64,000 nucleotides of DNA from Candidatus Kerfeldbacteria bacterium. GTDB lineage: Bacteria > Patescibacteriota > Patescibacteriia > UBA10025 > JAHIVO01. Below are positions 6,571 through 57,629 of the stretch, in pieces. The stretch is from positions 536,007 through 600,006 of the forward strand of contig JACROE010000002.1 in the NCBI GenBank assembly GCA_016214565.1, given 5' to 3'. The notes beneath the pieces were generated by a model, which saw only the letters and a program-made list of their open reading frames with translations, was not told where the DNA came from and searched no databases. The translations under genes and the position numbers were made by a program. Numbering within the stretch: the stretch's first letter is position 1; each line of letters begins with the position of its first letter.

Positions 6571-7272
6571 ATGGAGCGGATACAACATTATTTATATCGT
6601 AAAATACGGGTCGCCACAGTCATTGTGGTGGCTGTTTTGGTGATCATGGGCTCAAGCATTGGACTGTATGTTCAAGCGAGTTCCACCTCGAATTTTCAGC
6701 AAACCATAAATGCCGGGACTCTTGCCGTTGATATCGTGAATGGCAGTTATGTTACGGTGGGGAGTCCGTCGGTTGCCATGGGAGCCGTGACGTTTAGTTT
6801 TGGCTGTCAGACTGCGACGGGAACGTTTGGCAGTGCCACCCAACAAATTTACGTTTCGAATCCGGATGCGGCAGATAATGGATGGACCGTGTCATTGGCT
6901 GGATCAGCCGCTACCGCGGTGTGGGATAGCGCGGGTACTGACTATGATTTTAATGATCCCACTACGTCTGGATGCGCTGACGGCGCCGACGCGGACAGTT
7001 TAGCTGGACAATTAACCGTCGATCCAAATGCGGGAACCTTGGCTACCGGTCAGTGCAGCAGCTGTGCCACATCAAATATTACCAAAGGAACATCGACTGG
7101 CTTTAATCAGGGAACAACTGATAGTATTACCATTTTGACCGGTGCCGCCGCCTCGAATGATATTGGCGATTGGACATTGCAAGGGGTTAGCCTCTCACAA
7201 AAAATTCCGGCGGAACAGCCCGCAGCTGCTGATTATGATATCAATACGACCTTATCCATCGTTGCATCATAA
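6571..7272 (+). CDS. secreted protein carrying the family B C-terminal domain (two conserved Trp motifs; WxL-like)
   Basis: N-terminal TM/signal (VATVIVVAVLVIMGSSIGLYV). Residues ~70-233 align with the last ~165 aa of the 8698..11331 protein (TFSF..QT.TG.FG...QQI.V.N......W..SLA.S..TAVWDS.GTDYDFNDPT....DG.DADS..G.LT.DP.... DW/YW ..G..VSQ.IP.EQP...DYDIN..LS.VAS). Confidence 0.7.
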   Translation: MERIQHYLYRKIRVATVIVVAVLVIMGSSIGLYVQASSTSNFQQTINAGTLAVDIVNGSYVTVGSPSVAMGAVTFSFGCQTATGTFGSATQQIYVSNPDAADNGWTVSLAGSAATAVWDSAGTDYDFNDPTTSGCADGADADSLAGQLTVDPNAGTLATGQCSSCATSNITKGTSTGFNQGTTDSITILTGAAASNDIGDWTLQGVSLSQKIPAEQPAAADYDINTTLSIVAS

Positions 7273-8697: not shown

Positions 8698-11331
8698 ATG
8701 CGTCAGACATTTCGTGTCATTGTTATTTTTTTGCTGGTCACGGGCTGGTTATTCAGCGGGTGGCCGCCACTGTCTGACTCTTTTCCATCGCAACCTGAGT
8801 CAGCCTGGGCGACGGTATCGAATAATGGACGCTTGTATTATGGTGATGGGACAAACACGGTACTGCGCTTCCAGGAAAACGCTTATGATTTTGATTTCTC
8901 CACTGGCGAAGAATCATACACGCATGGCGCCAGTGCTAGTTTAATTAGATTCATCGTGGCAAAGCCCGCGGTTACTCGTGATGAGGTGATGGTGGGCATC
9001 TTGAAAGCAGACGGCCAATTGACGGTTATAAAAGGTGTCAACGGGTATGACGTCAACACTGATTACTCAACGGCCTGGAGTAATACCGGTACAACGCCGG
9101 CCATGACCTGTGAAGGCACTGAAGCCGATTGTTCTCGCGCTTTTGACATTGCATACGAGCGTTTGTCTGGCCGAGCCATGGTTGTCTACGCTGATAATGT
9201 GAATCAAAAACTGTATTATTGTTATTATGACGGCACCAACTGGGGGCCGGTTTCGAATTGCGCCCCGACGAATGGGACTAATGACATTACCCTCTCATCG
9301 AATGGCCGACCGACCTTTGTCTCGTTGAAACCGAAAGGTGGTTCTAATGAGCTGCTGCTCGGGGTAGGCATCGATGTGGCGGGCACCCATGAAGTGGAGG
9401 CGTACCGTTGGACTGGTTCGACGTGGAGTAACCAAGTAGTAGCAACTGATACGACCAATGCGTCATCAAGCGGAAACGAGCAAGGGGCTGTCTTCGATGT
9501 TGAGTGGGAGAGTAATTCGGGCGACGCTCTGGTCATGTATGCCACTACGGCTACGAGTAATGAGATAAAATATAAATTGTTACCCTCCGGCGGCAGTTGG
9601 GGTACTGAGCAGGGTGGATTTGAGACCCTGACGAATGGAGCGGTCACCGTTTGGGTGAATGCGGAGAGCGATCCACAGTCTGATCGGATTGCGATTGCTA
9701 CTAATGATACATCAAATGATTTCAATGGCGCCGTGTGGAAGGGCAACGGTACGAGTGCTGGGTTTACGGCACTGGTGAGTGATGGCACGCTTGAGGGTGG
9801 TAATGGTTCCACGCCCGGACCCGCCTATACCGATGTGCAATGGGAGCAAACCGGGTCTGAGTTTCTATTTGTTTTGATGGATGCTGGCGCTGGGGACACC
9901 GGTGCCTATGTTCGCTATGCCTGTACTGGCAGTGGTTGTAGTGTGTCGACCGCTCAAACGGCAATCACCACGACCGGTTTAACGGATGATGCTCAAATGA
10001 TTCGTACCGCCGCTTCTCGCAATAGCGACGATATCATGGTATTGCTCACTGATATCGACAATAATTTAATTACCCAACACTGGAATGGCACTGCCTGGGA
10101 AACAGGTGATGCGGGAGTGCTTGAGGCGTCATTGTCACTCTGCTCGGCTGATAATATTGCTACGGGTTGCAGTGCCATGCCCGCTGCCTTTACCTATATT
10201 CCCTATTCACCCTGGTCTCGGAATTGGAAATTTTGGCAGGGGACTGATACGACTGATACGCCGACAAATCAATTAGCAAATGAGAATGTGGCGCCTACTA
10301 GTTTTAGCGGAAAATTTCGGCTTCGATTTTCTGTGGCTGAACTCTCCGGCATGGGACAAGATAACTCAAGAAAAAAATTGCAGTATGCAACGGCTGATCC
10401 TGACGCCACATCCACCACCTGGACAGACGTTGATGATCCGGGCGGAACTGGCGCAGCCTGGCGATACTTCGATTGTAATGGTGGCAGCTCGGTCTGCGAT
10501 GACAATGGAGCACTGGGCGGGACCACTCTTTCCGGCTCGCCGACTGTGGGTTGGTGGACATTAGACAAGGACGCTGTTGGTGGTGCAGCCATGGATCATG
10601 CTGCATTGCAACTTCGTGAACTCGAATTTCCAGTCGAAGCATATAATGTCGCTTCCAGCACCACCTACTATTTCCGCATGTATGATGTCGATCAGGGTCG
10701 GCCGGTGCGGCGTGAGCAGGATAATGATGGTTCAAACGATTGCGCGACTGCCACGTGCACGTATCCGAGTTTAACCACGGCAAGCGGAAGCTTGACGGTT
10801 GATATTGTCGACAGCGGAGGTAGCTCGGTGTCCAGCCCGAGTATGGTGATGAACAATGCGACGTTTTCATTTACCTTCCAAACCGTTACCGGGAGTTTCG
10901 GCATATCGTCGCAGCAGATTCGAGTAACGAACACGACGGGTACGGCTACGTGGACACTCTCCTTGGCTGCCTCGGCCACTACGGCAGTGTGGGACAGCGT
11001 GGGTACTGATTATGATTTTAATGATCCGACGGCCGGTGCGGCTGACGGAGGCGACGCTGATTCGGTTGGCGGTCGTTTGACTATTGACCCGTCTGTTTCC
11101 ACGATTACGCCGCAGGGAGGATGTAGTACAACTGGCTTGACTAAGGGGGCTTCGACTGGCTTTTCTGAAGGAGTGACCAATACCATTACTTTGGTAACAG
11201 CAGGAGCTAGTACCGGCACGGGCTGCTATTGGGACGTCACTGGTATTGGCGTATCGCAGACTATCCCCATGGAGCAACCGATTGCTTCGGATTATGATAT
11301 TAATATGGTGCTGTCCGTAGTGGCGAGCTAG
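8698..11331 (+). CDS. large secreted protein (877 aa) with repeated Trp-containing modules and a C-terminal family B domain
   Basis: Signal peptide MRQTFRVIVIFLLVTGWLFSGW. C-terminal 165 aa homologous to 6571..7272. Confidence 0.7.
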   Translation: MRQTFRVIVIFLLVTGWLFSGWPPLSDSFPSQPESAWATVSNNGRLYYGDGTNTVLRFQENAYDFDFSTGEESYTHGASASLIRFIVAKPAVTRDEVMVGILKADGQLTVIKGVNGYDVNTDYSTAWSNTGTTPAMTCEGTEADCSRAFDIAYERLSGRAMVVYADNVNQKLYYCYYDGTNWGPVSNCAPTNGTNDITLSSNGRPTFVSLKPKGGSNELLLGVGIDVAGTHEVEAYRWTGSTWSNQVVATDTTNASSSGNEQGAVFDVEWESNSGDALVMYATTATSNEIKYKLLPSGGSWGTEQGGFETLTNGAVTVWVNAESDPQSDRIAIATNDTSNDFNGAVWKGNGTSAGFTALVSDGTLEGGNGSTPGPAYTDVQWEQTGSEFLFVLMDAGAGDTGAYVRYACTGSGCSVSTAQTAITTTGLTDDAQMIRTAASRNSDDIMVLLTDIDNNLITQHWNGTAWETGDAGVLEASLSLCSADNIATGCSAMPAAFTYIPYSPWSRNWKFWQGTDTTDTPTNQLANENVAPTSFSGKFRLRFSVAELSGMGQDNSRKKLQYATADPDATSTTWTDVDDPGGTGAAWRYFDCNGGSSVCDDNGALGGTTLSGSPTVGWWTLDKDAVGGAAMDHAALQLRELEFPVEAYNVASSTTYYFRMYDVDQGRPVRREQDNDGSNDCATATCTYPSLTTASGSLTVDIVDSGGSSVSSPSMVMNNATFSFTFQTVTGSFGISSQQIRVTNTTGTATWTLSLAASATTAVWDSVGTDYDFNDPTAGAADGGDADSVGGRLTIDPSVSTITPQGGCSTTGLTKGASTGFSEGVTNTITLVTAGASTGTGCYWDVTGIGVSQTIPMEQPIASDYDINMVLSVVAS

Positions 11332-18772: not shown

Positions 18773-18806
18773 CTCGCTATGCCCTCATCGTTGATAGCAA
18801 TGACAT

Positions 18807-18878
18807 GCCTCCGTCGTTCAGTGGATAGGACGCAAGATTCCGGATCTTGTAACAGAGGTTCGACTCCTCTCGGGGGCA
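18807..18878 (+). tRNA. tRNA-Arg (anticodon CCG), no encoded CCA
   Basis: Manual fold: acceptor GCCTCCG/CGGGGGC, D-stem GTTC/GGAC, anticodon stem CAAGA/TCTTG with loop TTCCGGA, T-arm AGAGG-TTCGACT-CCTCT, discriminator A. Confidence 0.85.
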
Positions 18879-18920
18879 AATGATTTTTATAGCTAGGCGT
18901 ATGAAAGTAAAAGTGAAATA

Positions 18921-21323: not shown

Positions 21324-21348
21324 ACTAATTACATTTACAAATACATAC

Positions 21349-21471
21349 CTTATCAAGAGTGAGCGTAGGGATCTGACCCGATGATGCTCCGGCAACCGCG
21401 AAGCGCCCTGAATGTACTTCAGGGCCATTCAATGGTGCTCCATTCAGACTACAATCGTGTAGGAAGATAAG
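21349..21471 (+). ncRNA. SAM-I (S-box) riboswitch aptamer
   Basis: CTTATCAAGAGtGAGCGTAGGGAtCTGaCCCGATGAtGCTCCGGCAACC ... GGTGCTCCATTCAGAC ... GGAAGATAAG matches the S-box consensus (P1 CUUAUC/GAUAAG, kink-turn, GCAACC, GGUGCUAAUUCC-like). Located upstream of metK. Confidence 0.85.
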
Positions 21472-21487
21472 CATTAGCCTCAAACTT

Positions 21488-21535: not shown

Positions 21536-22693
21536 ATGTCCGTACGGAAACTATTTACCTCAGAGTCAGTCACCGAGGGTCATCCCGATAAAGTCTGTGA
21601 TCAAATTTCAGATGCCATTTACGATGCGATGCTGCGCCAAGATCTTGAGACGCACGCTGGCATCGAATGTTTTGCGACCACCGGTCTCGTGATGGTTGGC
21701 GGTGAAGCCCGCACTAGAGCCTACGTGGATATTCAGGATGTGGTTCGTCAGACATTGAAACGGATTGGCTACGATAGTCCTGATTTTGGTTTTTGCTACA
21801 AAGATATTGGCGTTATCAGTACGCTTCATGAACAATCCCCGGATATTGCGCAGGGCGTGGACGAAGGCGCCGGCGAATTCAAAGAGCAGGGCGCGGGTGA
21901 TCAGGGACTCATGTTCGGCTATGCCTGCGATCAGACGCCGGAGCTGATGCCATTGCCGATTTCGCTGGCCCAGCGCTTGGCACGACGGTTGTCAGAAGTG
22001 CGCAAAGACGGCACATTGCCATATTTACGACCTGATGGCAAGTCCCAGGTCAGCGTTGAATATATTGATGGCAAACCTTCTCGGGTAACGGCCGTGGTGA
22101 TTGCCGCACACCATGCGGAAAGTGTAGAAATGGAAACATTGCGTAGAGATATTACCGAGCAGGTGATTAAGCCCGTCCTCGGCGAATGGTACACTGCCGA
22201 AACTCAAATGTTTATTAATTCGACGGGTAAGTTTGTGATTGGTGGTCCTCCGGCAGACACTGGTTTGACTGGTCGTAAAATTATCGTCGATACGTATGGT
22301 GGCTACGCCCCTCATGGCGGTGGTTGTTTCTCGGGGAAATGCATTACCAAGGTTGATCGCAGCGCTGCCTACGCCGCTCGGTACATCGCCAAGCATGTGG
22401 TAGCTGCTGGATTGGCACGTGAATGTTTAGTGCAGCTGGCGTATTCTATCGGTGTAGCCAAACCTGTTTCGATCATGGTTGATACCAAGGGGACCGGCAC
22501 CATACCGGATGCGGAGATTGAGGCGCTGGTTGAGAAGCATTTTCCCGTGAAACCGGCAGATATTATTCGTGAACTCAATCTCAAGCAACCTATCTATGAG
22601 CAAACCGCTGCCTATGGCCATTTTGGCCGAACAGATGTGGAGTTTCCTTGGGAGAAATTAGACAAGCTTGACCTGGTACGCCAGAAAAAATAA
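21536..22693 (+). CDS. metK: S-adenosylmethionine synthetase
   Basis: [46 protein letters not shown]-like GGGCFSGKC. Confidence 0.95.
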
Positions 22694-40146: not shown

Positions 40147-41298
40147 TTATTTTTTACTCGACGGCGTTCGTTTGGTCAGGATTACCCAGAGTGTACCGAG
40201 AAACCAGATTGAACTAACGAGCGAGACGGTCCAGCCAATCGTCGGAATATTGGCAAGCGCTACAACAATCAGCGTGCCCAGCATCATGCGCCAGATGAAT
40301 GGAGTCGTTTTGCCATTCCGATTGAGGAGCCAGGTGCCCAGCAGGGTTCCCACAAATATTTTTGACAAATATATTGCCAGCAGATAGCAGCCCAGGCTGA
40401 TGAGCCCGAGCGGCAAACCAATGAGCGTCATCATGGCAATCACTGAAAGGATTGGCACGGCGATAAACAGTAAAAGCCCCCAGAGCATAATGATGACAGG
40501 TTCGACTTGCATCCGTTTCATGGTCGACTCAATGCGTTCACTGGCAATGCTGACCACTATAGTGCCCACTAAGAGCAGGCCAAAGAGGCCAATTAATTCA
40601 CTGAGGATCCATGCTCGCGTGAAGAAGTCCTTGTCGAATTCAAGGTTGGCATTGAATTGGCGATGCACCGTATTGCCAGTAATCACCGCCGCCGTTGAGA
40701 CGTTTGCCGCCTGTGTACCGCGATAGGTGAAATCCCCATTGATGACGGCGCTATCACCCAGGGTAATACGTCCCTTTTCTCCCAGCGTAACGTCGACATT
40801 ACTCCCAATAGTATTGGAAATAGATACAGCCTCGCCTGCTAAGGAGACATTCCCACCGATCGGTCCATTCAGTTGCAGCGTCCGCCCGCCCGCAATAATG
40901 CTCCATCCAATCGTGGCTTCATCATCAAGCGTAATGGTTTCACCGGCTACGGTCACATTTTTTCCTACGGGAGCATTGATGCTGATGCGCTGGCCACCGG
41001 CGCGGACATTACCCGCTACGGGACCATTGATCTCCAGCGTGCCTGCGCCGCTGATGACATCACCATTGACCGTGCCATTGATGGTGATCGTGCTGCCAAA
41101 GGCATAGACATCACCATTGACCGTGCCATTGATGGTGATTTGATCGCCTGCCGCGAACAGGTTATCGTCAATGGTTTCATCCTTGGCAATGGTAATCTGC
41201 TCTTCGGTACTGATGGATAATGCCTGGCTAGTCTGAGGGAGTAGCGCGATCCCCATGACTAAAAATCCGAACAGAATGGCGGCGTGGCGTAGTTTCAT
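40147..41298 (-). CDS. membrane protein with N-terminal beta-helix-type repeats (bactofilin/DUF4097-like) and a C-terminal polytopic domain
   Basis: Signal peptide MKLRHAAILFGFLVMGIALLPQTSQA. Repeats INGTVNGDVYAFGSTITINGTVNGDVISGAGTLEINGPVAGNVRAGGQRISINAPVGKNV..., then ~5 TM helices. The track ORF extends N-terminally into the neighbouring gene and was trimmed. Confidence 0.5.
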   Translation of the reverse strand: MKLRHAAILFGFLVMGIALLPQTSQALSISTEEQITIAKDETIDDNLFAAGDQITINGTVNGDVYAFGSTITINGTVNGDVISGAGTLEINGPVAGNVRAGGQRISINAPVGKNVTVAGETITLDDEATIGWSIIAGGRTLQLNGPIGGNVSLAGEAVSISNTIGSNVDVTLGEKGRITLGDSAVINGDFTYRGTQAANVSTAAVITGNTVHRQFNANLEFDKDFFTRAWILSELIGLFGLLLVGTIVVSIASERIESTMKRMQVEPVIIMLWGLLLFIAVPILSVIAMMTLIGLPLGLISLGCYLLAIYLSKIFVGTLLGTWLLNRNGKTTPFIWRMMLGTLIVVALANIPTIGWTVSLVSSIWFLGTLWVILTKRTPSSKK

Positions 41299-41363: not shown

Positions 41364-42083
41364 TCAATGCTTTTGGGCGACGGTAGTCAGATTGAATCCT
41401 TTGGTTGCTGGCGCGGCAATTCCATTTGCCGTGTACTGGTGATAGATTAGTGAAAGGTTGTTTTGTTTGAGCAGTTTTCCGAGACTGCCTTTTGAAAATA
41501 AATGGAGATATCGTTTTCCCTGCACTACGCCTGATTGGTTTTTCCATGGCTTTTCTACATCTCCCCAATCTAATGAATTCATGCCGAGCATTTTTTTCAA
41601 TGAATAGCGTACGAGGAGTCCCCACCACTGGGCGTGCCAGAGATTCCATTCGGTGAGGCAGAGGTAACCGCCGGGTTTGAGGACGCGGGCTGCTTCTTGG
41701 ATGGCAGCGCGGCGGAGCTCCCGTGACGGAATATGATGCAGTGTGGCGACGCAGCAAACCACGTCGAATTGCTGGTCGGGAAATGGCAATTCAGTTGCCT
41801 CACTGACCAGGAAGGTAGCCGCTGGGTGTGCTTGTTTGGCAATATCAATGAGCGCCATGCTATTATCTACGCCGGTATAATGGATTTCCTTTTTTTCGAG
41901 AAAAGTAGCCAGCCGGCCATTGCCACAGCCTATGTCTAATACGCGATTGCCTGTTTTGACATATGGCTCAAATAGGGTAAACTCCCCCCACGGATGCGAC
42001 CTCGTGCCAGAAAATTGCTGGGCAATCCGGTTGTATACCTGCTTGTTTTCCTTTACAATCCTTTGTGCACGTGCCTGTTTCAT
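41364..42083 (-). CDS. class I SAM-dependent methyltransferase, Trm9/ALKBH8-MT-like (predicted tRNA cm5U34 methyltransferase)
   Basis: Motif I VLDIGCGNG. Post-I VDNSMALIDIA. ATLHHIPSRELRRAAIQEAARVLKPGGYLCLTEWNLWH closely resembles Trm9 (..VIHH..T.ERR..AL.E..R.LKPGG..LIY.WA.EQ). Confidence 0.6.
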   Translation of the reverse strand: MKQARAQRIVKENKQVYNRIAQQFSGTRSHPWGEFTLFEPYVKTGNRVLDIGCGNGRLATFLEKKEIHYTGVDNSMALIDIAKQAHPAATFLVSEATELPFPDQQFDVVCCVATLHHIPSRELRRAAIQEAARVLKPGGYLCLTEWNLWHAQWWGLLVRYSLKKMLGMNSLDWGDVEKPWKNQSGVVQGKRYLHLFSKGSLGKLLKQNNLSLIYHQYTANGIAAPATKGFNLTTVAQKH

Positions 42084-42087
42084 ATAT

Positions 42088-43692
42088 ATGAGTGTATCAC
42101 AATCCTACATAACTGACCTGCAGAAAATTCGTCCTACTGACGAGGAGGCTTTGCGCCAGGCAAAACGCGATTTAGCTACCAAACATGGAAGTACTATTGT
42201 TTCCAATGCAAAGATTCTAAAAGAGTATCGGACGCATGTGGCGACCGATGATCAAGATCAAACATTATTACGCGTTCTCCGCAAGCGGAATGTACGGACG
42301 CTATCGGGTATTGCGCCGGTGACCGTATTGACCAAGCCCTATCCCTGCCCGGGGCGCTGCGCTTACTGTCCGACCGAAGCGCGCATGCCGAAGAGCTACA
42401 TCGCCTCGGAGCCGGCTGCCCAGCGCGCCCTGCAATTGCATTTTGATCCGTACCAGCAGATGAAGCTTCGCATCGAGGCATTTGAGGCAAACGGCCACAA
42501 CGCCGATAAAATTGAATTGATCGTGCTTGGTGGCACCTGGTCATACTATGATGAGCAGTACCAGCAGGAGTTTATCAAAGGATTGTTTGATGGCGCCAAT
42601 GGATTTATTGCTGACTCGTTAGCTATTGCGCAGAAGCATAATGAGACAGCTCAGCACCGTATCATTGGCTTGACCCTCGAGACCCGGCCGGACTATGTCA
42701 CCAAAGAAGAGTTGTGGCGGATGCGGCAGTTTGGTTGTACCCATGTGCAGATTGGCGTGCAGACGCTTGACCAACAAGTGCTTGACCTCATCAAGCGCGA
42801 CGACAATGTGCAAAATATTGCGCGGGCTACGGCTATGCTCCGGGATTTTGGTTTCAAAGTGACATATCATTTGATGCCGGGTTTGCCAGGCGCTACGCCC
42901 GAAGGCGATTATCAAGTGTTCAAACAAGTATTTACCGACCCGCGGTTCCAGCCGGATATGCTGAAGATTTATCCGTGTGTGGTGGTGAAGAGCGCACAGA
43001 TTTACCAGTGGTATAAAGATGGAAAATATAAACCATACGAGGGGAAACAGCTGCTTGATTTGCTCGTCCGCATTAAGAAAGATTTAATACCACCCTACGT
43101 CCGTATCAATCGTTTGATTCGTGATATCCCCGGCGATGATATCGTGGCAGGTAATTTGGTAACCAACCTGCGTCAGTTGATGCATGATCAAGGAGTGGTC
43201 TGTCAATGCATCCGGTGTCGGGAAGTGCGCGATGCGGTGCCGGAGACAGAAGTGCAATTGATGGAGCGTACCTATCGTGCTGGCCAGGGAGCTGAGCATT
43301 TCCTTAGCTTTGAAAATAGTGATCAATCCAAACTGTACGCCTTTACCCGCCTGCGGTTGCCGGATCGTGAGCATCGAATTACCGAAAAGCTCGAAGTGGT
43401 TCGTTTCTTTGATAAGAAGAAAATCACCATGACCGGCAACGAATTAGCGTTTCCCACTGACACAGCCTTGATTCGTGAATTACATACGTATGGCGAACTG
43501 ATTCCCGTCGGGTCAGCACGGTCCGCCACCCAGCATATTGGATTTGGCAAACGCTTGATGGCACGCGCCGAGGAGATAGCTCGGCGTGAGGGGTATAAAA
43601 AGCTAGCTGTCATTTCGGGCATTGGCGTGCGGGGGTATTATGAAAAATTAGGTTTCACGCTCCAGGATACATACATGGTGAAGGAGCTTTAG
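42088..43692 (+). CDS. elp3: Elp3-family radical-SAM/GNAT enzyme (tRNA uridine-34 carboxymethylation, Elongator subunit 3 homolog)
   Basis: CPGRCAYC radical-SAM cluster motif. Colinear with eukaryotic/archaeal Elp3 through the rSAM core (IIGLTLETRPDY, GCTHVQIGVQT, YHLMPGLPG, LKIYPCVV) to the C-terminal GNAT (HIGFGKRLMARAEEIARREGYKKLAVISGIGVRGYYEKLGFTLQDTYMVKEL). Start at the internal Met because the track start overlaps the divergent gene. Confidence 0.85.
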   Translation: MSVSQSYITDLQKIRPTDEEALRQAKRDLATKHGSTIVSNAKILKEYRTHVATDDQDQTLLRVLRKRNVRTLSGIAPVTVLTKPYPCPGRCAYCPTEARMPKSYIASEPAAQRALQLHFDPYQQMKLRIEAFEANGHNADKIELIVLGGTWSYYDEQYQQEFIKGLFDGANGFIADSLAIAQKHNETAQHRIIGLTLETRPDYVTKEELWRMRQFGCTHVQIGVQTLDQQVLDLIKRDDNVQNIARATAMLRDFGFKVTYHLMPGLPGATPEGDYQVFKQVFTDPRFQPDMLKIYPCVVVKSAQIYQWYKDGKYKPYEGKQLLDLLVRIKKDLIPPYVRINRLIRDIPGDDIVAGNLVTNLRQLMHDQGVVCQCIRCREVRDAVPETEVQLMERTYRAGQGAEHFLSFENSDQSKLYAFTRLRLPDREHRITEKLEVVRFFDKKKITMTGNELAFPTDTALIRELHTYGELIPVGSARSATQHIGFGKRLMARAEEIARREGYKKLAVISGIGVRGYYEKLGFTLQDTYMVKEL

Positions 43693-43772
43693 AAATTCAC
43701 GCAAATTACTTGTCATCCTGAACTTGTTTCAGGATCTTTTATTGTTTAGTCACTTTTCTTGACATGAGTATT

Positions 43773-47574: not shown

Positions 47575-47760
47575 CTAAACGGTGCCGGAGCCGTGGCACG
47601 TCGGACATTCGCCCGACCCACCACAATGAGAACAATCAATTTCAGGGGTCAGGGGCTCGACACCCGTACCGCTGCAATTAGAACACTTACCATTGCCAAC
47701 GTCACAACCAGGCAGATGGTCAGCGCAGTCGGAACAACCCTCTTCGAGGTACTCTCCCAT
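47575..47760 (-). CDS. 61-aa cysteine-rich zinc-finger mini-protein with DnaJ-CR-like CxxCxGxG repeats
   Basis: MGEYLEEGCSDCADHLPGCDVGNGKCSNCSGTGVEPLTPEIDCSHCGGSGECPTCHGSGTV. Perfect extended SD AAAGGAGGTGAT 6 nt upstream of the ATG. Confidence 0.7.
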   Translation of the reverse strand: MGEYLEEGCSDCADHLPGCDVGNGKCSNCSGTGVEPLTPEIDCSHCGGSGECPTCHGSGTV

Positions 47761-47818
47761 GTATATCACCTCCTTTCAGGGAATTGACAGATTGATAGGG
47801 AAATACTAGCGTGAGAGA

Positions 47819-51645: not shown

Positions 51646-52929
51646 ATGAACCTGAAAGACACGGATAAAAAAATATTCGATTCAATTCACGACGAATTAG
51701 AGCGCCAGCGGAATGGACTGGAAATGATTCCGTCGGAAAACTTTACCTCCCCGGCAGTGCTGGAGGCCTTGGGTTCAGTATTGACCAATAAATATTCCGA
51801 AGGGTATCCGGGCAAACGCTACTACGGCGGCAATGAATTTATTGATGTGGTGGAAAAGGCCGCTCGGTTCCGTGCAAAAAATTTGTTCGGTGTAGAGTAT
51901 GCCAATGTCCAGCCGTACTCCGGTTCTCCTGCCAATCACGCCGTGTACATGGGCCTCCTCAATCCGGGTGATAAAGTACTGGGCATGAGCCTGACGCACG
52001 GCGGGCATCTGACGCACGGGTGGAAAATCAGTTTTTCCGGGCACTATTATCATGCGGTGGCCTATGGCGTGGATAAGGAAACCCATCGCATTGATTATGA
52101 CCAGGTGCGCGAAATGGCACGGAAAGAACAACCCAAACTCATTATCGTCGGCGCTAGCGCCTATCCGCGGGAAATTGATTTTAAAATTTTTGGAGAAATT
52201 GGAAAAGAAGTAGGCGCGTATGTTTTGGCGGATATTGCCCACATCGCTGGTCTGATCGTGGCAGGAGCGCATCAATCGCCGGTGGATCACGTAGACGTAA
52301 TGACCACCACCACCCATAAGACCCTGCGCGGCCCCCGTGGCGCTATGATTATGTTTCCCCGCGTCGCAGATCGATTGCACGAGAAATACCATGCGGGTGA
52401 TAAGTGGAACCTCGCGGAACGCATTGATCGAGCGGTGTTTCCTGGCCTGCAGGGCGGCCCGCATAACCACCAGACGGCGGCTATTGCCGTGGCGCTGAAG
52501 GAAGCCGGTACCGAAGGATTCAAGAAATACGGCCATCAGGTGGTGAAGAACGCGAAGGCATTGGCCGCTCGATTGCTTGAGCACAATTTTTCCTTAATCA
52601 GCGGCGGTACGGACAACCATTTAATTCTAATTGACCTGACCAATAAAGAAATTTCCGGAGGTGAAGCAGAAACATTGTTGGATAGCATTGGCATCACAGT
52701 CAATAAGAATACGATTCCGTATGATCTGCGCAAACCCATGGATCCCTCTGGCATTCGCTTGGGCACACCGGCACTCACTACCCGCGGTATGCGCGAGGAA
52801 GATATGGTGACTATCGCAGATATTATTGCCGACGTTATTCATAATGCGCAGAAGGAATCGAAGTTGGACGAGGCGAAAGCGCGGGTCAAAGAATTGACTG
52901 CCAAGTACCCGCTGTATCAGTGGATGTAA
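51646..52929 (+). CDS. glyA: serine hydroxymethyltransferase
   Basis: [50 protein letters not shown] (PLP-lysine region). Confidence 0.96.
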
Positions 52930-53013
52930 TATTATGTCATCGCGAGGGAGCATTATGCGACCGTGGCGATCTGATTGGATTGCTACGTTCCACTCGCAAT
53001 GACAGACACCACC

Positions 53014-53853
53014 ATGCCACATATCATTGACGGAAAAAAACTAGCCGGAGAAATACGTGCGCGACTGAAAACAGAGATCGCCGCGCTTTCGGCTGTGCCG
53101 GGTCTGGCGATTATATTGGTCGGTGATGACCCTGCCTCTCATACCTATGTCGGGCTCAAAGAAAAAGCGGCGGAGGACATTGGTATGCATTTTGAGCGGC
53201 ACATGTTTCCGGCAGACACGACGCAGGCCGCCTTGGTTAAACGCATCAACGAATTAAATCAGCGCAGCGATATTCATGGCATCGTGGTGCAATTACCATT
53301 ACCCGGAAAATCATTTGATACCGATGCTATTATACAGACGATAGCGCCGGACAAGGACGTGGACGGATTTCATCCGACGAATATTCAGGCATTATTGGCA
53401 GGCAATCCGCGAATCACTCCTGGCTTGGCCGAGGGGATTTTTCGGTTGATCGCTAGCACGAATGAATCTTTGCCGGGGAAGAAAGCTATGATTTTTGCCA
53501 ATTCGCCAGTTTTTTCCAATCCCCTTGAATATATTTTGAATCAGCATGGCATACAGACGGTCAGTTGCGCGCCGGGCGTGGATGACGCAATCGTCGTTTC
53601 ACGGCAGGCGGATATTATTGTAGCTGTCATCGGCAAGCCAAATTTTGTCACCGGTGAAATGGTGAAGGACGGCGCTATCCTGATTGACGTTGGTTTTACT
53701 AAGCAGAATGGCCAAGTATCCGGCGACATCGCTCCGTCAGCCGTTGCCAAGGCACGCTGGGCCACGCCAGTGCCAGGCGGCGTGGGGCCCATGACCGTCG
53801 CCATGCTCCTCGAAAACGTGCTGCACGCATTTCGTTTACAGCAGGCGCAGTAA
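53014..53853 (+). CDS. folD: bifunctional methylenetetrahydrofolate dehydrogenase/cyclohydrolase
   Basis: IIDGKKLAGEIRARLKTEIAAL, IHGIVVQLPLP, PGGVGPMTVAMLLENV. Start at the internal Met, uncertain by ±13 codons. Confidence 0.9.
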   Translation: MPHIIDGKKLAGEIRARLKTEIAALSAVPGLAIILVGDDPASHTYVGLKEKAAEDIGMHFERHMFPADTTQAALVKRINELNQRSDIHGIVVQLPLPGKSFDTDAIIQTIAPDKDVDGFHPTNIQALLAGNPRITPGLAEGIFRLIASTNESLPGKKAMIFANSPVFSNPLEYILNQHGIQTVSCAPGVDDAIVVSRQADIIVAVIGKPNFVTGEMVKDGAILIDVGFTKQNGQVSGDIAPSAVAKARWATPVPGGVGPMTVAMLLENVLHAFRLQQAQ

Positions 53854-56582: not shown

Positions 56583-57629
56583 ATGAGTTTTTCTATTGGC
56601 ATAGTTGGGCTGCCCAACGTCGGCAAATCAACCCTCTTTACCGCATTAACGAAAAAACAAGTTGATGCGGCGAATTATCCATTCTGTACGATTGATCCCA
56701 ATGTCGGAACCGTGCCCGTGCCGGATGAACGATTGGGCAAATTAGCTGCGGTGTATAATTCCGCTAAAGTGATTCCGACCGTGATTGAATTTGTGGATAT
56801 CGCTGGACTGGTGGCTGGCGCGCACAAGGGCGAGGGATTAGGCAATAAGTTTCTCTCTCATATACGTGAAGTGGACGCTATCTGTCAGGTAGTACGGGAA
56901 TTTTCAGATGCGAATGTGATCCACGTGGGTGGTCGAGTCGATCCTGAGTCTGACAAGCAGATTATTAATACCGAATTGATTTTTGCTGACCTGGCCACGG
57001 TGGAGCAGCGCCTGCATGATGTCCAGCCAAAAGCCCGCAGTGGCGACAAGGAAGCCGTGGCGCAACTCGCGACATTACAAAAAGTGCAGCAGCTGTTAGA
57101 TGGCGGCACGGTATTATCACAGGCAGGCCTGACTGATGATGAGCGCATGGTGCTTCGCGATCTCCATTTATTGACCCTGAAACCCATGCTGTACGTCTTG
57201 AACGTGGCGGAAAACGAAGTAACTAAATCATCACCCGGGCAGCTGGTTATTTCCGCTAAACTAGAATCCGAGCTGGTCGGCATGCCTGAGGTAGAAGCGC
57301 GAGAATATTTGAATAGCGTGGGCATGAAGGAAACCGGCCTTGATCGCCTCATTCGCGCCGCCTATGATTTGCTTGGTTTGATTACGTTTTTTACGGCAGG
57401 ACCGACAGAGACGCGCGCATGGACAATTCCGCGTGGAGCCACCGCTCCCCAGGCAGGCAGCGCCATTCACACTGATTTTGAGGAGAAATTTATTCGTGCC
57501 GAAGTCACCCCTTGGCAGGATATCGTGGAGTGCGGTGGGGAAGTCAAAGCCAAAGAATTGGGGAAAGTTCGCACCGAAGGCAAGGAATATGTGGTGCAAG
57601 ACGGGGATACGATCTACTTCCGCATTTGA
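56583..57629 (+). CDS. ychF: ribosome-binding ATPase YchF (Obg-family GTPase)
   Basis: IGIVGLPNVGKSTLFTALT G1, DIAGLV G3, NxxE variant, and the C-terminal TGS-like domain. Confidence 0.9.
   Translation: MSFSIGIVGLPNVGKSTLFTALTKKQVDAANYPFCTIDPNVGTVPVPDERLGKLAAVYNSAKVIPTVIEFVDIAGLVAGAHKGEGLGNKFLSHIREVDAICQVVREFSDANVIHVGGRVDPESDKQIINTELIFADLATVEQRLHDVQPKARSGDKEAVAQLATLQKVQQLLDGGTVLSQAGLTDDERMVLRDLHLLTLKPMLYVLNVAENEVTKSSPGQLVISAKLESELVGMPEVEAREYLNSVGMKETGLDRLIRAAYDLLGLITFFTAGPTETRAWTIPRGATAPQAGSAIHTDFEEKFIRAEVTPWQDIVECGGEVKAKELGKVRTEGKEYVVQDGDTIYFRI

Follow-up and report, generated by a model that had tools for sequence, protein, structure and literature searches.

Does a bacterial genome contain the two-step pathway that in eukaryotes and archaea modifies the wobble uridine (U34) of tRNA? 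This question is raised by a pair of divergent genes in a stretch of 64,000 nucleotides, in the following called the window, from Candidatus Kerfeldbacteria (Patescibacteria, Parcubacteria group), which covers 64 kb out of a roughly 1.1-Mb genome. An earlier sequence-only reading of the window had assigned one of these genes to Elp3, the catalytic subunit of eukaryotic Elongator, and the other one to a methyltransferase related to Trm9. Our analysis makes it likely that the two genes form a self-contained U34 module, in which Elp3 would first generate 5-carboxymethyluridine (cm5U34) and the methyltransferase would then convert it into 5-methoxycarbonylmethyluridine (mcm5U34), probably without the small activator protein Trm112. 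Both open reading frames (ORFs) were found at exactly the coordinates that had been reported before:

41364..42083, reverse strand, methyltransferase ORF, 239 amino acids; class I S-adenosylmethionine (SAM) methyltransferase of the Trm9 family, predicted to convert cm5U34 into mcm5U34
42088..43692, forward strand, Elp3 ORF, 534 amino acids; radical-SAM plus GNAT protein, predicted tRNA U34 cm5U synthase

The identification of the larger protein as Elp3 is secure on the basis of its sequence. The NCBIfam model TIGR01211 is matched with 530.7 bits (cut-off 350, E 3.5e-159), whereby residues 17-534 align with positions 12-522 of the 522 model positions. The Pfam domains Radical_SAM (PF04055, E 5.7e-17) and Radical_SAM_C (PF16199, E 1.5e-20) were both found above their gathering scores, and the C-terminal GNAT domain (Acetyltransf_1, PF00583) was recognized at residues 482-523 (E 3.6e-5, 24.5 bits compared to a cut-off of 20.7). 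The closest match in the PDB is 5l7j, the Elp3 of Dehalococcoides mccartyi (DmcElp3; E 8e-119), followed by 6iaz from Methanocaldococcus infernus, which aligns from query residue 38 onwards, and then by the Elp3 proteins of yeast, mouse and human; these solved structures align with the ORF right to its C-terminus. Hence, the initial Elp3 assignment, including the CPGRCAYC motif and the C-terminal GNAT block, agrees with the full-length TIGR01211 match, the Pfam domains and the structural alignments. The characteristic motifs were inspected in an alignment of 19 diverse homologues:

42346..42369, forward strand, radical-SAM [4Fe-4S] motif CPGRCAYC (C87-x3-C91-x2-C94); all three cysteines invariant
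43201..43218, forward strand, Zn-binding cysteine triad CQCIRC (C372, C374 and C377); invariant
43531..43548, forward strand, acetyl-CoA motif Q482-H-I-G-F-G487 of the GNAT/KAT (lysine acetyltransferase) domain; Q482, H483, G485 and G487 invariant

The Zn-binding triad is typical of bacterial and archaeal but not of eukaryotic Elp3 proteins (PMC6367351). Furthermore, the protein from the window carries an N-terminal extension of approximately 65 amino acids beyond the start of DmcElp3. Such an extension has been linked to tRNA binding, and its absence has been put forward in the literature as the reason for the weak activity of DmcElp3 (PMC6367351, PMC7663514). A different kind of variation occurs in the related loci L005 and L006, where Elp3 (L005:7815-9977) contains an in-frame DUF559 domain (Vsr-like endonuclease) of about 100 amino acids (residues 496-597 in L005) within an insertion of approximately 180 amino acids between the radical-SAM-C and GNAT parts. 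The methyltransferase neighbour is retained in these loci, and the additional segment might represent a mobile endonuclease-type insertion.

The affiliation of the second protein is less obvious from curated models. It matches Methyltransf_11 of Pfam with E 2.1e-25, and in NCBIfam only generic families respond: the DVU_1556 family with 76 bits, which is below its cut-off, the UbiE/MenG model TIGR01934 with 64.2 bits (cut-off 158), the BioC model TIGR02072 with 52.3 bits (cut-off 185), and the UbiG model with 49.2 bits (cut-off 103), in all cases restricted to the SAM core. With scores that far below the cut-offs, an enzyme of the UbiE or BioC type, which the sequence-only reading had named as the alternative that would refute its Trm9 call, is not supported. 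A model predicted by AF2 (pLDDT 96.2) shows a Rossmann-type fold.

Several lines of evidence lead from there to Trm9. When the single sequence was searched against the PDB, Trm9 from the Yarrowia Trm9-Trm112 complex (5cm2_Z) ranked third with the longest alignment, and with a profile made from 28 aligned methyltransferase homologues it ranked first among all PDB sequences (E 1.5e-26, 96.4 bits). This alignment spans the elements TR..W, GCGNG, HH, W, PW and RY.H. The invariant columns among the 28 homologues comprise Y17, F24, R28, W32, the GCGNGR motif, D73, H116, H117, W146, D175, R191 and N231, and the segment that had originally drawn attention to Trm9 aligns with SIAVIHHFSTPERRREAV...LRPDGRALIYVWA in Yarrowia Trm9. 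A search with Yarrowia Trm9 returned only fungal proteins among the best 120 matches and served to build a fungal Trm9 profile from 16 named proteins. The comparison of the two families by hhalign gave a probability of 100% (E 1.3e-41) over 207 columns, i.e. near the full length of both. The fungal-only hidden Markov model (HMM) scored 95.1 bits over the full methyltransferase ORF, its sole match in the window, and in the related loci every one of the 56 family members received 57-118 bits, while other methyltransferases remained below 19 bits. Even after masking of the SAM core, the fungal profile gave 18.9 bits (E 3.8e-5) for the window protein, compared to a maximum of -0.9 for shuffled sequences and a family median of 15; this signal stems mostly from the N-terminal segment VYxxIAxxFSxTRxxxW. 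The JGI pipeline independently names some family members 'tRNA (uracil-5-)-methyltransferase TRM9', and an exhaustive profile search at E <= 1e-30 yielded 1,835 clusters at 50% identity. Collectively, these results support that the protein belongs to the sequence family of Trm9, and what had been a call by eye from one motif is now upheld by the profile, hhalign and core-masking results as well as by the residue and linkage data described below. Neither these matches nor those of Elp3 can be put down to chance.

The catalytic residues of Trm9 are defined by the mutagenesis work of Létoquart et al. (PMC4678810) on the enzyme from Saccharomyces cerevisiae (ScTrm9), whose activity depends on R29, D72, H116, W145, W168, R241, Y243 and N271, with H115 and Y18 in a supporting role. 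The H116A variant is inactive; according to the authors' proposal, the carboxylate of cm5U is bound by R29, H116 and R241 and the uracil by W145 and N271 (PMC4678810). The equivalent positions were mapped by the profile-PDB and hhalign alignments, and their conservation was counted over 55 relatives that are linked to Elp3:

42000..42014, reverse strand, FSGTR motif (F24-R28); R28 corresponds to ScTrm9 R29, a proposed binder of the cm5U carboxylate, and is found in 55/55 relatives
41733..41738, reverse strand, HH motif (forward letters atgatg, reverse complement CATCAT), invariant among the 28 homologues; H116 corresponds to ScTrm9 H115 (47/55 relatives) and H117 to ScTrm9 H116 (51/55 relatives)
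Y17, corresponding to ScTrm9 Y18; supporting residue, invariant among the 28 homologues
D73, aligned with D72/D83 by hhalign and corresponding to ScTrm9 D72, the Asp binding the SAM ribose; 52 Asp and 3 Glu among the 55
W146, corresponding to ScTrm9 W145; 54/55 relatives
W180, corresponding to ScTrm9 W168; aromatic in 53/55 relatives
R191, corresponding to ScTrm9 R241; 49/55 relatives
L193, corresponding to ScTrm9 Y243; Leu in the window protein
N231, corresponding to ScTrm9 N271; 39 of the 42 sequences without a gap at this position

Regarding R29, H116, W145, W168, R241, Y243 and N271 of ScTrm9, the methyltransferase from the window keeps six of the seven residues, Y243 being the exception.

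The genomic arrangement connects the two families further. We surveyed 86 Elp3 loci, of which 80 stem from metagenomes and 6 from species genomes; their median pairwise Elp3 identity amounts to 47%. The HMM of the methyltransferase family used for this purpose gives members 135-334 bits, whereas methyltransferases outside the family stay below 35 bits. The methyltransferase gene is situated immediately upstream of and divergent to elp3 in 47 of the 75 loci with enough upstream sequence, and it is found elsewhere within 6-8 kb in another 8 of them. The adjacency persists if the Elp3 proteins are clustered (39/62 clusters at 70% identity and 20/28 at 60%). Counted over 87 loci, the methyltransferase occurs 56 times near Elp3, the next frequent neighbours being a membrane protein (26), serine hydroxymethyltransferase (SHMT, 23), FolD (20), NUDIX (20) and phosphoglucomutase/phosphomannomutase (PGM/PMM, 18). 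The linkage is also seen in the reverse direction: all seven loci picked by methyltransferase similarity alone (37-42% identity) possess a divergent adjoining elp3 gene, and their flanking context is different at each of them. The pairing of Elp3 with this methyltransferase is thus no accident. A third conserved gene, such as one for Trm112 or a thiolase, was sought around the pair in the 87 loci and not found; recurrent small ORFs near the pair turned out to be antisense shadows of elp3. An ALKBH8-type fusion was likewise considered for a 498-aa ORF in locus L038 (4446-5939), in which the methyltransferase runs into a WecG/TagA glycosyltransferase; it is uninformative in this respect. A glycosyltransferase of the WecG/TagA family is encoded by a separate gene directly downstream of the methyltransferase in two other loci (L092:4741-5505 and L094:4663-5469), and the continuous ORF in L038 may have arisen by gene fusion or by loss of a stop codon.

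Judged by its family membership, Elp3 would carboxymethylate U34 at C5 with the help of its radical-SAM cluster and acetyl-CoA, resulting in cm5U34. The methyltransferase would then move the methyl group of SAM onto the carboxylate of cm5U and thereby produce mcm5U34, as is suggested by its homology, its active-site residues and its linkage to Elp3. In such a reaction R28, H117 and R191 might position the carboxylate, and W146 and N231 might hold the uracil ring. The genes for MnmE, MnmG, MnmC and MnmA are absent from the 64-kb window, whose GTPase at 56583-57629 was identified as YchF. A single tRNA gene is present, which encodes tRNA-Arg(CCG) (18806-18879, forward strand) without U34; therefore, the window is uninformative on candidate tRNA substrates.

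Some of our results weigh against this interpretation. The runner-up among the PDB matches to the family profile, 3sm3 with 85.7 bits, is only about 11 bits behind Trm9. The C-terminal part alone gives a weak signal of 6.9 bits with the fungal Trm9 profile. The position of ScTrm9 Y243 is occupied by Leu in the window protein and by Tyr in just 26 of the 55 relatives. Moreover, the assignment depends on profiles that we built ourselves, because Pfam and NCBIfam hold no curated Trm9 model. Finally, such a methyltransferase is missing within 6-8 kb at 20 of the 75 Elp3 loci, and the neighbourhood is conserved partly through shared ancestry.

These points leave some room for other explanations. 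The one that survives best assumes a methyltransferase that is functionally linked to Elp3 and has tRNA as its target, however, with a different methylation, for example at some other atom in the side chain of xm5U34, on a different Elp3-derived intermediate, or at another position of the anticodon loop. The residue that in ScTrm9 contributes to tRNA binding as well as catalysis, Y243, is variable in the family, the C-terminal substrate-binding region resembles fungal Trm9 only weakly, and an xcm5U derivative has been demonstrated in no bacterium (PMC7663514), which would all fit such a different activity. Nevertheless, the equivalents of R29, H116, R241, W145 and N271, the proposed binders of the carboxylate and the uracil, are nearly invariant. 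This conservation is hard to explain with a different substrate, and we regard an alternative methylation as unlikely.

Considerably less probable is the assumption that the methyltransferase is a generic class I enzyme for small molecules or other targets (UbiE, BioC or one of unknown function), which lies beside Elp3 due to inherited gene order in compact genomes. It is true that Pfam and NCBIfam return only generic methyltransferase matches, that in fold searches several methyltransferases that are uncharacterised or act on small molecules score as well as Trm9 or better, and that PGM/PMM, SHMT, FolD and the membrane protein also recur near Elp3. However, the NCBIfam matches all remain far under the cut-offs and cover the SAM core only, whereas the Trm9-specific residues outside this core are conserved in the family. 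Inherited gene order is also difficult to reconcile with the persistence of the pair in different genomic contexts and with an adjacency to Elp3 that is at least twice as frequent as that of any other neighbour. It is finally highly improbable that bacterial Elp3 and the methyltransferase jointly serve a role outside U34 modification, e.g. in protein acetylation, which could be suspected from the very weak in vitro activity of DmcElp3, the only bacterial Elp3 studied (PMC7663514), but is contradicted by the intact catalytic motifs of Elp3, by the extended N-terminus, associated with tRNA binding, that the window protein has and DmcElp3 lacks, and by the finding that acetyl-CoA hydrolysis by Elp3 from bacteria, archaea and eukaryotes needs tRNA as a trigger (PMC6367351).

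The conversion of cm5U34 into mcm5U34 by a Trm9-family enzyme leads to the question of whether Trm112 would be necessary. Eukaryotic Trm9 requires this small activator (PMC4678810), and Trm9 of Haloferax requires it in vivo (PMC6144793). In the Yarrowia structure, Trm112 covers a patch on Trm9 that is formed by V59, F78, V102, A110, P112 and F116; due to the hydrophobicity of this patch, Trm9 alone is insoluble. The corresponding positions differ clearly between the fungal and the bacterial proteins:

Yarrowia V59 position, hydrophobic in 100% of fungal Trm9 and 4% of the bacterial family, which has mostly Lys or Arg
Yarrowia F78 position, hydrophobic in 94% of fungal Trm9 and 12% of the bacterial family, which has mostly Asp, Glu or Asn
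Yarrowia V102 position (beta-3 zipper strand), hydrophobic in 100% of fungal Trm9 and 61% of the bacterial family, with mixed residues
Yarrowia V103 position (beta-3 zipper strand), hydrophobic in 100% of fungal Trm9 and 54% of the bacterial family, with mixed residues

From the entire contact surface only the generic F116/D117 motif is retained in the bacterial family, and a motif scan of the 64-kb window revealed no evident Trm112-like ORF. Because charged residues replace the hydrophobic patch, and because neither a conserved small gene near the pair nor a Trm112-like ORF in the window was found, the methyltransferase probably works as a stand-alone enzyme. Since the Trm112 surface is not conserved, we file it under the Trm9 sequence family and not as a holoenzyme of the Trm9-Trm112 type. 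The window also contains a Cys-rich ORF of 64 amino acids (47575-47769, reverse strand), whose repeated CxxCxGxG-like motifs resemble a DnaJ-type zinc finger and are not Trm112-like.

How does the pair compare with the systems known so far? It shares both catalytic families and the predicted cm5U to mcm5U chemistry with eukaryotic Elongator plus Trm9-Trm112 (ALKBH8-TRMT112 in humans). The domain order and the motifs of Elp3 are the same, and the methyltransferase aligns with fungal Trm9 over its full length, with the equivalents of R29, D72, H115/H116, W145, W168, R241 and N271 being kept. On the other hand, nothing points to Elp1, Elp2 or Elp4-6 accompanying the bacterial pair, Elp3 of the window differs from eukaryotic Elp3 by the presence of the Zn-binding cysteines, and the methyltransferase differs from eukaryotic Trm9 by charged residues at the Trm112-contact patch and by Leu at the position of Y243. 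It also has neither the AlkB nor the RRM domain of ALKBH8, and the physical head-to-head pairing of both genes has no counterpart in the eukaryotic pathway. In archaea, Trm9 of Haloferax volcanii (HVO_1032) has been shown to make mcm5U, and in Sulfolobus solfataricus the genes for Elp3 and Trm9 form a cluster (PMC6144793). Hence, the archaeal Elp3 and Trm9-Trm112 likewise combine a stand-alone Elp3 lacking the other Elongator subunits with a Trm9 orthologue, including clustering in at least one archaeon, and M. infernus Elp3 has a long N-terminus as the protein from the window. The bacterial host and the Trm112 interface mark the difference: Haloferax Trm9 depends on Trm112, whereas the interface is not conserved in the bacterial family (archaeal Trm9 was compared via its description in the literature).

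Among bacterial enzymes, DmcElp3 (5L7J) is also a stand-alone Elp3 and, of all solved structures, the one that the window protein matches best, but it is weakly active, does not have the N-terminal extension, and no Trm9 partner has been described for it in the literature (PMC7663514, PMC6367351). The canonical bacterial route to xm5U34, MnmE-MnmG together with MnmC, has the same target, C5 of U34, and the same presumed role in decoding (PMC7663514). It differs by unrelated enzymes, by its cofactors (GTP, FAD, methylenetetrahydrofolate and glycine) and by its products, 5-carboxymethylaminomethyluridine (cmnm5U) and 5-methylaminomethyluridine (mnm5U). Another bacterial class I methyltransferase, CmoM (SmtA) of E. 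coli, methyl-esterifies uridine 5-oxyacetic acid (cmo5U34) to its methyl ester mcmo5U34, whereby the oxyacetic acid side chain of the substrate is made by CmoA and CmoB. Like the reaction predicted for the window enzyme, this one esterifies a U34 side chain that carries a carboxyl group, the substrate being different from cm5U. No structure named SmtA or CmoM was present in the top 60 PDB matches to the methyltransferase protein or to the family profile.

Another peculiarity of the pair is the very short distance between the two start codons:

42081..42090, no strand assigned, head-to-head start-codon junction CAT-ATAT-ATG, with CAT at 42081-83, ATG at 42088-90 and 4 nt between them

Both starts are independently supported, because M1 of the methyltransferase is invariant in the alignment of 28 homologues, which all show the N-terminus MKxxxA, and because a separate gene caller applied to a Logan assembly predicted identical products of 534 and 239 amino acids. 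The start codons are not more than 5 nt apart at 24 of 48 related loci. They overlap by two bases (CATG) at 10 of the 48 loci (L008, L009, L023, L028, L029, L040, L044, L054, L072 and L084), stand back to back (CATATG) at 6 (L007, L049, L051, L060, L070 and L071), and are separated by 4 nt at 5, the window included. The head-to-head order, often with overlapping starts, thus appears to be kept across diverse Patescibacteria and some other uncultured bacteria. With start codons that overlap or nearly touch each other, the promoters, 5' leaders and ribosome-binding sites of each gene would have to lie within the partner gene; this deduction from the sequence-only reading is sound and applies generally, given the spacing at half of the loci. 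The tight co-regulation that had been derived from the 4-nt gap does not follow, since the arrangement would allow co-regulation as well as interference. Candidate signals for the expression of elp3 are the following:

41956..41983, forward strand, sigma-70-like promoter match TTGACA-16-TAAACT inside the methyltransferase gene, approximately 105 nt before the start codon of elp3; candidate
43715..43735, forward strand, terminator-like hairpin with T-rich tail, 22 nt past the Elp3 stop codon; candidate, such elements being not more numerous than in shuffled sequence

The first element is the sole promoter-like match, yet such matches are no commoner in the region than in shuffled sequence, which makes it weak evidence. 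Leaderless transcription from a -10 box next to each ATG was considered as well, but the positions -12 to -7 before the Elp3 start (TGTTTC) are not -10-like. In one related locus (L088:2932-3993), two small genes, one of them with a faint match to Y1 transposases, lie between the divergent elp3 and methyltransferase genes, which suggests the insertion of a mobile element.

The genes flanking the pair in the window have housekeeping functions: FtsK, RecA, glutamate racemase, a haloacid dehalogenase (HAD) hydrolase, PGM/PMM and a bactofilin-like membrane protein are encoded nearby, and SHMT and FolD further off. The gene of the membrane protein (40147-41298, reverse strand), which shows weak bactofilin-like repeats, begins 65 nt downstream of the methyltransferase stop codon on the same strand. 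Relatives of it (DUF8173 in L088) occur near Elp3 in 26/87 loci, and it may be an operon partner or reflect inherited gene order. The genes for SHMT (51646-52929, forward strand) and FolD (52975-53853, forward strand) are located about 8 kb from elp3 and were found in the Elp3 flanks at 23/87 and 20/87 loci, respectively. Their products make methylenetetrahydrofolate, the one-carbon donor of the MnmE/MnmG pathway and not of Elp3, and their recurrence is probably a matter of conserved synteny. Elsewhere in the window, a SAM-I riboswitch (21347-21473, forward strand; 51 bits, gathering score 44) precedes directly metK (21536-22693, forward strand), an ordinary arrangement. Two adjacent proteins of about 365 amino acids (101-1207 and 1229-2317) are 61% identical, have the look of tandem paralogues and show no Pfam match at E 1e-8. 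A protein of 233 amino acids (6571-7272) has a domain of about 190 amino acids (50-53% identity) in common with the C-terminus of an 877-aa protein (8698-11331); neither of these gave a Pfam match at E 1e-8.

How common Elp3 is among bacteria has been judged differently. Lin et al. (2019) called DmcElp3 'a rare example of bacterial Elp3s', reviews present bacterial Elp3 as a Dehalococcoides curiosity (PMC7663514, PMC6367351), and a paper from 2026 mentions Elp3 in 'numerous bacteria'. The statement of the sequence-only reading that stand-alone bacterial Elp3 is known from very few lineages thus reproduces the published view but does not hold for the databases, in which we found more than 7,600 homologues at E <= 1e-20, many of them already labelled Elp3 by the NCBI pipeline. 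The best-scoring among the matches listed belong mostly to Patescibacteria, where Elp3 is widespread, and further relatives were found in metagenome-assembled genomes labelled Planctomycetales, Omnitrophica and Gammaproteobacteria. Bacterial Elp3 is therefore far commoner than the reviews say, and most Elp3 loci carry a dedicated methyltransferase of the Trm9 family. We found no paper on bacterial Trm9 or on Elp3 in the candidate phyla radiation (CPR)/Patescibacteria, and nothing relevant on Elp3/Trm9 together with CPR, Patescibacteria, Parcubacteria or MnmE/G; since the searchable literature is incomplete, these negatives amount to no more than absence of evidence. The enzyme families and the predicted chemistry were already known, and annotation names exist as well, Elp3 at NCBI and TRM9 for a few of the methyltransferases at JGI. 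What is new are the occurrence of the pair in Bacteria, the loss of the Trm112 surface and the conserved head-to-head module. Hence, our data extend a known pathway and do not reveal a new one.

For applied research, the methyltransferase could serve as a Trm9 whose solubility and activity may not depend on Trm112. The Elp3 from the window would be a bacterial enzyme with a complete N-terminus for tRNA binding and may be easier to work with in vitro than DmcElp3. Regarding the biology of these bacteria, we would only tentatively, and with more doubt than confidence, extend the proposal to the assumption that Patescibacteria/CPR and scattered uncultured lineages use Elp3 followed by Trm9 as their main or only route to xm5U34, that their Trm9 represents an ancestral or streamlined, Trm112-free form, and that the pair is kept as a start-overlapping (CATG) unit with an unusual bidirectional expression. 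According to the literature, xcm5U derivatives have so far been demonstrated in no bacterium (PMC7663514). If the proposed function of the gene pair is true, mcm5U would exist in Bacteria, and its synthesis would no longer be a hallmark of archaea and eukaryotes, which would bear on the evolution of wobble decoding and on the archaea-like traits of translation in the CPR.

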